Below, in pieces: positions 10,374 to 11,245 of a DNA stretch of 44,405 nt (its first letter is position 1; every line of letters starts with the position of its first letter). The translations under genes were made by a program, and so were the position numbers. The DNA is from Escherichia phage EC3-1: sequence record PQ571288.1. One strand, given 5' to 3'. The notes under the pieces were generated by a model. The model searched no databases. It worked only from the letters and a program-made list of their open reading frames with translations, and was not told the DNA's origin.

Positions 10374-10565
10374 ATGAAACACGAATATGCCCGCAAACCA
10401 GCACGCGACATCGTACCTGGCGACATGATTTTCAACGTTAAGACCCGTCGTCCTGTTGCCGTTGATACGGTGTTCGTCGAGTCGAACGGTAAACTGGTTA
10501 TCGAAGATGTAACTGGTAACGTTACCGCGTTCGGGCGTAAAGAGTTAGTTCTGGTGGCGAAATGA
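10374..10565 (+). CDS. Hypothetical protein
   Basis: 63-aa ORF with RBS AAGGAAT. Confidence 0.5.
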   Translation: MKHEYARKPARDIVPGDMIFNVKTRRPVAVDTVFVESNGKLVIEDVTGNVTAFGRKELVLVAK

Positions 10566-11245
10566 TTGTCTGGTCATTGTTTGACGGTTCAGGCCTTATG
10601 GCCCAACCGTGGGCAGAAGCGGGCCATACTTGCTACTGTTTCAACTACGACGGCGCCGACCACGGCGACTACGCACGCTTGGGTGCAAAAGTTGAACACG
10701 GGAACATCCACTTTATAAACGCGTGGATTGATAATAAATTCGACTTCAACGTTGCGCCGGATATTATTTTCGCATTTCCTCCTTGCACAGATTTAGCAGT
10801 TAGTGGTGCGGCGCATTTCGAAACGAAGCGTAAGAAGAACCCAACGTTTCAGGTAGAGGCTGTTATCACATGCAAAGTGGCGGCACGCCTGGCTAAAAGG
10901 TATAACGTACCTTATATGATTGAGAACCCAGTTAGCGTCCTCTCGTCTTTGTGGCGTAAGCCCGATTATGTGTTCAATCCTTACGAATACGGAGGCTATT
11001 TACCGGAAGACGACACGCATCCAATGTTCCCGGATGTTATCCCCGCGCGAGATGCCTATGTTAAAAAGACGTGCCTATGGGTAGGCAATGGGTTTGTTAT
11101 GCCCGACGTTGCTGTGGTTGCCACGGATAGCTGGGATAACCCTGGTTGGGCTAAACTCGGCGGAAAGAGCGCCAGAACAAAGACAATCCGCAGCCTCACC
11201 CCACGAGGCTTCGCAAAAGCAGTTTACGAGGCTAATCATGGCTAA
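10562..11245 (+). CDS. Compact DNA (cytosine-5)-methyltransferase-like protein
   Basis: Motif I LFDGSGL, motif IV FPPCTDLAVSG (catalytic Cys), motif VI MIENPV, in canonical order and spacing; only 227 aa, so little room for a target-recognition domain. Confidence 0.65.
   Translation: MIVWSLFDGSGLMAQPWAEAGHTCYCFNYDGADHGDYARLGAKVEHGNIHFINAWIDNKFDFNVAPDIIFAFPPCTDLAVSGAAHFETKRKKNPTFQVEAVITCKVAARLAKRYNVPYMIENPVSVLSSLWRKPDYVFNPYEYGGYLPEDDTHPMFPDVIPARDAYVKKTCLWVGNGFVMPDVAVVATDSWDNPGWAKLGGKSARTKTIRSLTPRGFAKAVYEANHG

Follow-up and report, generated by a model that had tools for sequence, protein, structure and literature searches.

The gene at positions 10562-11245 (+) of Escherichia phage EC3-1 (sequence record PQ571288.1) very probably encodes an active, orphan, S-adenosylmethionine (SAM)-dependent DNA cytosine-5 methyltransferase (C5-MTase) of a compact, Dcm-like phage family, which would be expressed together with the early replication genes. 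Below, "the window" means the whole stretch that was analysed, 44,405 nucleotides (nt) in length, and residue numbers refer to the 227-amino-acid (aa) protein. This reading is based on the fold, the conserved catalytic residues, the orthology to a tested enzyme and the 5-methylcytosine (5mC) reported in the literature for that orthologue; from these we infer the activity of the EC3-1 protein itself, its target site, its oligomeric state and the anti-restriction benefit. The gene and the elements discussed within it are as follows (TRD, target-recognition domain).

10562..11245, +: compact Dcm-like DNA C5-cytosine methyltransferase gene (probable function), 227 aa, ATG start, stop TAA at 11243-11245
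10574..10594, +: motif I SLFDGSG, residues 5-11, predicted to form the loop that follows strand beta1 and binds SAM
10775..10792, +: motif IV FPPCTD, residues 72-77, with the predicted nucleophile Cys75 (TGC at 10784-10786), from the family alignment
10922..10933, +: motif VI ENPV, residues 121-124, with Glu121, from the family alignment
11057..11080, +: motif VIII-like strand YVKKTCLW, residues 166-173, Y-x-K-x-T-x-x-W as against the canonical Q-x-R-x-R
11105..11188, +: mini "TRD" segment DVAVVATDSWDNPGWAKLGGKSARTKTI, residues 182-209, putative target-recognition role
11189..11236, +: C-terminal motif RSLTPRGFAKAVYEAN, residues 210-225, resembling motif IX (R-x-L-x-P-R-E-x-A-R), last helix

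Results

The tested relative

The experimental support comes from phage K42, a phage of the Drexlerviridae with 95.4% genome identity to KarlJaspers Bas06 (bioRxiv 10.1101/2023.08.16.553469). All four K42 mutants that escaped retron Ec86 carried lesions in or just upstream of the 711-bp dcm gene, and a Dcm of this kind is encoded by 34 of the 35 Ec86-sensitive phages (10.1101/2023.08.16.553469). Expression of K42 Dcm is toxic only in cells carrying Ec86, while the quadruple alanine mutant (C82, E128, K175 and K176 replaced together) is inactive and has no such effect; these residues had been named as the active site by superposition of an AlphaFold2 model on DNMT3A (10.1101/2023.08.16.553469). 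Measured by mass spectrometry coupled to liquid chromatography (LC-MS), 5mC in the Ec86 multicopy single-stranded DNA (msDNA) is high with K42 Dcm and low with the quadruple mutant or the empty vector; changing CCTGG in the msDNA stem abolishes the defence (10.1101/2023.08.16.553469). A 2026 paper restates the finding that Dcm is the trigger of retron Ec86.

The EC3-1 protein is related to this enzyme through KarlJaspers (Bas06) bas06_0055, a 711-bp gene annotated "Dcm-like C5 cytosine methyltransferase", with whose product it shares 61% identity across residues 2-225 (E 6e-106). The K42 residues C82, E128, K175 and K176 map position for position to C75, E121, K168 and K169. The two proteins, at 61% identity, also have a common recognition-region allele, DNPGWAK-GGKS-RTK-IRSLTPRGFA. 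Direct methylome data on Jersey- or Kaguna-type phages were not found in the literature. A retron paper of 2025 in PLoS Biol was set aside, as it concerns an N6-adenine enzyme.

Catalytic motifs and conservation

The original prediction, made from the letters of the sequence, had described an open reading frame (ORF) of 227 aa with motifs I, IV and VI in canonical order. The ORF is confirmed by the ORF list and its translation, and all three motifs (SLFDGSG, FPPCTD, ENPV) are found in that order. PHROG 757, "DNA methyltransferase", is hit at 1.8e-86 by residues 1-226 of the protein, which has homologues in 7,292 clusters at 90% identity and 1,278 at 50% identity (E<=1e-3). With this match, these thousands of clusters and the conserved residues given below, the ORF is not a chance one.

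Conservation was assessed on an alignment of 135 diverse family members, down to about 35% identity. Motif I of the EC3-1 protein has the form F-x-G-x-G (F7-D-G9-S-G11) and is aligned by hhalign to FAGLGG of M.HhaI; the family-wide form is [FYC]-D-x-[TS]-G, in which the first Gly is not conserved. In motif IV, which aligns with the PC of M.HhaI, Cys occurs in 132 of the 135 members. In motif VI, whose ENP is placed on the ENV of M.HhaI by single-sequence hhalign, Glu and Pro are each found in 133/135 members and Asn in 126/135.

At least 95% of the members share Cys75, Gly82, Lys89, Glu121, Pro123, Tyr166, Lys168, Trp173 and Pro181. At a level of at least 93% the conserved positions are Gly21, Cys75, Gly82, Lys89, Ala100, Glu121, Asn122 and Pro123 within residues 1-123, and Pro140, Asp164, Tyr166, Lys168, Thr170, Trp173, Pro181, Arg210 and Gly216 within residues 124-227. 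The EC3-1 protein carries all the family-invariant residues.

The remaining motifs depart from the canonical pattern. In the motif VIII-like strand Tyr166, Lys168, Thr170 and Trp173 are near-invariant, and the structural model has a strand at residues 170-175. In the C-terminal motif Arg210, Ser211, Pro214, Gly216 and Ala220 are near-invariant, and the model has a helix at 215-225; R-S-L-T-P-R-G-F-A-K-A-V resembles R272, L274, P276, R277, A280 and R281 of HhaI, a match made by eye. Only one such C-terminal motif (RSLTPRGFAKAV) is present, and the protein ends 17 residues past Arg210, which would leave no room for a separate motif X.

Profile-profile comparison with HhaI and HaeIII (hhalign) recovers motifs I-IV at 81-89% probability and nothing beyond them. 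The canonical profiles tried were HhaI alone, HhaI with HaeIII, and a canonical alignment of 121 sequences; sub-alignments of the C-terminal part to the canonical C5-MTase profiles gave noise only.

Predicted fold

For an AlphaFold2 model computed from an alignment of 43 sequences, the mean predicted local distance difference test score (pLDDT) is 88.4 and the predicted template modelling score (pTM) is 0.88. Lower pLDDT values are seen in the catalytic loop (residues 71-90) and at residues 121-130 and 191-200. The model shows the alternating order of strands and helices of a class I methyltransferase. The structure prediction that had been suggested for this protein thus gives a class I SAM-methyltransferase fold with C5-MTase topology.

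In a structure search with the model the best matches are C5 DNA methyltransferases, with DNMT3A/3B first and EhMeth, M.MpeI and DNMT1 also among them. A Foldseek search agrees and places DNMT3A/3B at the top (E 3.5e-7, probability 1.00, template modelling score about 0.5), with HaeIII next. Generic Rossmann methyltransferases are aligned to the model over only about 115-140 residues.

Putative target-recognition segment

The statement that the protein lacks an obvious TRD holds: 28 residues separate Pro181 from Arg210, compared with 100 in M.HhaI (Phe171-Arg272), and a TRD of about 80-100 or more residues between motifs VIII and IX is absent. The spacer from the motif VIII-like strand to RSLTPRGFAKAV is 27-28 residues long in 268 of 321 members; for this count and for that of the alleles below, 396 sequences were scanned (P0001-P0390 among them), of which 75 did not match the pattern. 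We infer that the 28-residue segment, together with the catalytic loop, stands in place of the TRD. DNMT3 enzymes are known for a short recognition region, and a short segment replacing the TRD is consistent with their being the best structural matches.

The segment consists of two halves, residues 182-197, the most variable part of the protein, and a conserved KLGGKSxRTKxI. The variable half (nt 11105-11152) is hypervariable in the form of discrete alleles: DNPGW in 64 members, GYSxQ in 58 and others in 199. The DNPGW allele is found in EC3-1, Jersey, phiWAO78-1 and KarlJaspers, GYSxQ in many other enterobacterial phages, and further alleles in a clade of Arthrobacter phages. The allele can differ between proteins about 65% identical overall. 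From this pattern, residues 182-197 look like a swappable specificity loop.

The family and its length

The protein had been described as short compared with typical m5C methyltransferases. This is borne out, as it is about 100 residues shorter than the canonical bacterial C5-MTases. The short length is a character of the family and not a truncation, since virtually all PHROG 757-type members have 210-260 aa.

By tblastn, family matches are found in 1,522 phage records. Their hosts are Escherichia, Klebsiella, Salmonella, Shigella, Campylobacter, Vibrio, Enterobacter, Cronobacter, Citrobacter and Arthrobacter; one Methanosarcina virus is matched as well. The family is spread across Drexlerviridae, Guernseyvirinae, rV5-like and RB49-like phages and phages of Klebsiella, Vibrio, Campylobacter and Arthrobacter.

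Ten longer family members were checked for fusions: no Pfam domain was found in nine, and an HNH_2 endonuclease domain in the tenth. This member (P0370, 348 aa) has HNH_2 at residues 250-298 and a methylase match split into two stretches, probably the result of a homing-endonuclease insertion into, or fusion with, the methylase gene. In Arthrobacter phage Polka (L001 2586-4636) the compact Dcm-like gp46 (216 aa) has a 4-nt overlap with the preceding gp45, a second "DNA methylase" of 468 aa; some 2 kb downstream there is a gene for a deoxycytidylate deaminase.

Gene neighbourhood

The features around the methylase gene are the following.

10044..10343, +: small endonuclease gene (VRR-NUC-like / Holliday-junction-resolvase-like), upstream neighbour; PHROG 93 at 8.8e-33, PHROG 5702 at 4.8e-19
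10312..10340, +: sigma-70-like promoter match TTGACG-17-TATAGT, 10/12 positions, a consensus match only
10374..10565, +: 63-aa ORF, function unassigned; PHROG 4879 at 4e-45
11238..12662, +: SNF2-related DNA helicase gene; Pfam SNF2-rel_dom at 1e-12, PHROG 62 at 5e-168
12983..13002, +: terminator-like hairpin, GC-rich with a T-run, a consensus match only, at the end of the rightward block of replication genes

The local order is family A DNA polymerase, small ORFs, small endonuclease, 63-aa ORF, methylase and SNF2-related helicase, the same as in Jersey and phiWAO78-1. The methylase gene is a member of the replication module. It overlaps the helicase gene: its stop lies 8 nt into that gene, which likely starts with the ATG at 11238. 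The terminator-like hairpin separates the replication block from the convergent tailspike gene.

The original prediction had the methylase co-transcribed with a VRR-NUC nuclease and the SNF2 helicase. The identity of the nuclease finds support in the PHROG 93 "endonuclease" match and in the VRR_NUC note on Jersey_39, while no Pfam match was obtained for it at E<=0.001. Co-transcription with the nuclease is possible but not required, because the promoter match at 10312-10340 falls within the nuclease gene's 3' end, a short way upstream of the 63-aa ORF and the methylase; the annotation of phage Jersey has a promoter at the equivalent site.

The start ATG of the methylase shares the sequence ATGA with the stop of the 63-aa ORF, and on this overlap the two are translationally coupled. 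The 63-aa ORF is kept in Jersey and phiWAO78-1; the gene located upstream of dcm in KarlJaspers does not resemble it, and for this reason the ORF is probably not an obligate partner. A second-subunit role, as in the split M.AquI and M.EcoHK31I, was considered and rejected: the upstream gene in KarlJaspers is unrelated, and the Dcm works alone when expressed.

Phage group

A megablast search with positions 9500-12700 matched 454 phage records, nearly all of them Salmonella and Escherichia Guernseyvirinae (Kagunavirus, Jerseyvirus), and by this similarity the window is a Guernseyvirinae phage of the Kagunavirus/Jerseyvirus type. The top match is Escherichia phage phiWAO78-1 (90.6% identity), with synteny over about 75% of the length of the window. 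Its gp40, annotated "DNA cytosine methyltransferase / Dcm", has 95% aa identity to the EC3-1 protein. Jersey_37 (phage Jersey, KF148055), annotated as a C-5 cytosine-specific DNA methylase/Dcm, has 93%. Closer still are a tblastn match of 96.9% in Salmonella phage UPWr_S5 and the database clusters P0001 and P0002, 96% identical. The gene is thus already known, having been annotated as Dcm or C-5 methylase in Guernseyvirinae for years, and the novelty that the original prediction implied for a compact methylase was overrated.

Two segments without similarity to phiWAO78-1 were noted elsewhere in the window. In the tailspike gene at 13007-15292 (-), encoding 761 aa, only the N-terminal adaptor is conserved (a weak Tail_spike_N match). 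Over 13010-14930 the DNA is not similar to phiWAO78-1. This points to an exchange of the receptor-binding or depolymerase domain and, with it, to another host serotype. In the 156-aa ORF at 24774-25244 (+) an HNH_3 endonuclease domain is accompanied by a weak DNA-binding match of the AP2 type. The ORF falls in the segment 24779-25484, which has no blastn match to phiWAO78-1, and is probably a homing endonuclease.

Discussion

Proposed mechanism

By analogy with the C5-MTase family, Cys75 (motif IV, FPPC) would attack C6 of a flipped-out cytosine and Glu121 (motif VI, ENP) would protonate N3. SAM would be held by the motif I loop together with Asn28 and Asp30; its methyl group would be passed to C5, and beta-elimination would release the enzyme. 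The DNA is probably read by residues 182-209 and the flexible catalytic loop, as in the small-TRD DNMT3 enzymes, and possibly by an oligomer. We presume that the substrate is replicating phage DNA, while host DNA and retron msDNA would be modified incidentally, with CCWGG or a similar sequence as the likely site. The likely benefit would be protection from 5mC-sensitive restriction when the host Dcm cannot keep pace. The known cost in the family is that the same activity sets off retron Ec86/Eco1.

Points against the assignment and alternative explanations

Several results weigh against the proposed activity or its proposed target. The PF00145 search that had been suggested does give a match, at 16.8 bits over residues 3-100 only, which is below the gathering score of 22; a precomputed PF00145 match is present in a few family members. 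The NCBIfam search with the EC3-1 protein gave no match, and no C5-MTase or other methyltransferase was found when solved structures were searched by sequence with the single protein and with a 43-sequence family profile. The Q-x-R-x-R of motif VIII appears to be replaced by Y166-V-K168-K-T170, which has no Arg; Lys168-x-Thr170 appears to stand in place of Arg-x-Arg, an equivalence judged by eye and from the DNMT3A-based assignment in K42. No separate motif X, G-N-(A/S)-V, could be located in the protein, whose C-terminal region hhalign leaves without alignment. As for the target, the CCWGG specificity of K42 Dcm was assumed from E. coli Dcm and is backed only by the msDNA site mutants (10.1101/2023.08.16.553469). 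The K42 assays were made in a dcm+ host, MG1655, yet 5mC in the msDNA was low when the phage enzyme was lacking (10.1101/2023.08.16.553469). Either the host Dcm is inactive on msDNA or the phage enzyme has a site different from that of the host Dcm; the true site could therefore differ from CCWGG. Finally, in the BASEL study phage methyltransferase genes and restriction resistance were not linked in any simple way.

Part of these points would suit a methyltransferase-like protein with little or no catalytic activity, retained to bind DNA, to regulate or to act as a decoy. The Pfam score is below the threshold, the canonical motif VIII arginines and motif X are unrecognisable, the first Gly of FxGxG varies across the family, and no clear restriction-resistance phenotype was seen in BASEL. 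We consider such a protein very improbable, since the catalytic Cys, the Glu of ENP and about 20 further positions hardly vary even among members as distant as about 35% identity, a pattern typical of an enzyme, and since the 61%-identical orthologue raised msDNA 5mC while its active-site mutant did not. It is likewise very improbable, if slightly less so, that the physiological substrate is RNA (for instance tRNA, as for Dnmt2) or single-stranded or hairpin DNA instead of duplex phage DNA. The msDNA site is within a double-stranded stem; DNMT3 and bacterial DNA methyltransferases rank above Dnmt2 in the structural comparison, and the gene is placed in a DNA replication module, between nuclease and helicase, in several phage families.

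The original prediction had also allowed a different C5 modification chemistry. On this reading, a group other than methyl would be put on C5 of cytosine, for example carboxymethyl from host-made carboxy-SAM (Cx-SAM), as by CmoX and the engineered M.MpeI N374K, and the phage DNA would contain 5-carboxymethylcytosine (5cxmC) or a derivative. CmoX (PDB 8yf3) is a phage DNA cytosine C5-carboxymethyltransferase with an SPPC motif, a conserved Cx-SAM-binding Arg and linked cmoA/cmoY. It has about 370 aa, and its SPPC, Arg and cmoA/cmoY features are neither present nor conserved for the EC3-1 protein. Position 219, a putative counterpart of the motif X Asn at which CmoX has its Cx-SAM-binding Arg, is Arg in 45 of the 135 members, Lys in 22, Leu in 13 and Gln in 11. 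The motif is FPPC and not the SPPC that defines CmoX; neither the scanned ORFs of the window nor the annotation of its closest relative yielded a cmoA, a cmoY-like or another modification gene. K42 Dcm, which has Arg at the position equivalent to 219, produced 5mC by LC-MS when expressed in E. coli MG1655. With the Arg not conserved at the candidate position, the FPPC motif, no cmoA/cmoY among the scanned ORFs or in that annotation and the 5mC made by the orthologue, CmoX-like chemistry appears extremely improbable.

Methylation of duplex DNA at C5 is thus the reading that we prefer. The anti-restriction role proposed for it is plausible. CCWGG occurs 90 times in the whole window, compared with 63.4 +/- 8.2 expected from dinucleotide-preserving shuffles, a count not attained in any of the 100 shuffles made. 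CCWGG is enriched and not avoided, which is compatible with protection but not diagnostic of it. Despite the name "Dcm", no specific relationship of the EC3-1 protein to E. coli Dcm was detected.

Significance

For EC3-1 itself the gene is a routine, already annotated component of Jersey- and Kaguna-type phages, belonging to a family whose activity is experimentally supported. The family is very abundant (more than 1,500 phage genomes) and is known to trigger retron Eco1. Knowing what the loop alleles specify could help to predict the sensitivity of phages to restriction, type IV systems and retrons, and the compact family could yield minimal engineerable C5-methyltransferases.

It is tempting, though doubtful, to go further and to suppose that the family represents the smallest natural DNA C5-methyltransferase architecture, of about 215-235 aa with a recognition segment of about 28 residues and an unconventional reading of the target. 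In this tentative picture Lys and Thr would substitute for the arginines of motif VIII, and a single element would combine motifs IX and X. The target might be read, for example, by a DNMT3-like dimer or with a relaxed or hairpin-preferring specificity, and the loop alleles (DNPGW, GYSxQ and others) might encode different sites rather than CCWGG.

Comparison with known systems

Jersey_37 and phiWAO78-1 gp40 are orthologues of 227 aa with the same order of nuclease, 63-aa ORF, methylase and helicase; they differ from the EC3-1 protein by few substitutions, none of them at family-conserved residues. K42/KarlJaspers Dcm is of the same family and architecture, with the same catalytic residues, a DNPGW-type segment and the RSLTPRGFA C-terminus, and its gene likewise lies just upstream of a helicase gene in the replication module. 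KarlJaspers Dcm is longer (236 aa as against 227), with a 6-residue insertion before motif IV and two extra loop residues. It comes from Drexlerviridae and not Guernseyvirinae, its upstream small genes are different, and of these enzymes only that of K42 was assayed.

The DNMT3A/3B catalytic domains are the best structural matches to the model, although the sequence identity is 12-18%. The DNMT3 domain is larger (about 280 aa) and forms defined tetramers with regulatory domains, and the second Arg of its R-x-R appears as Thr170 in the EC3-1 protein. M.HhaI, M.HaeIII and E. coli Dcm/M.EcoRII share with the EC3-1 protein the fold and the succession of motifs I, IV and VI, and its C-terminal R-x-L-T-P-R-x-x-A-[KR] resembles their motif IX. 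Compared with these canonical enzymes, the EC3-1 protein has a segment between motifs VIII and IX of about 28 instead of about 100 residues, and their Q-x-R-x-R and G-N-(A/S)-V are unrecognisable in it.

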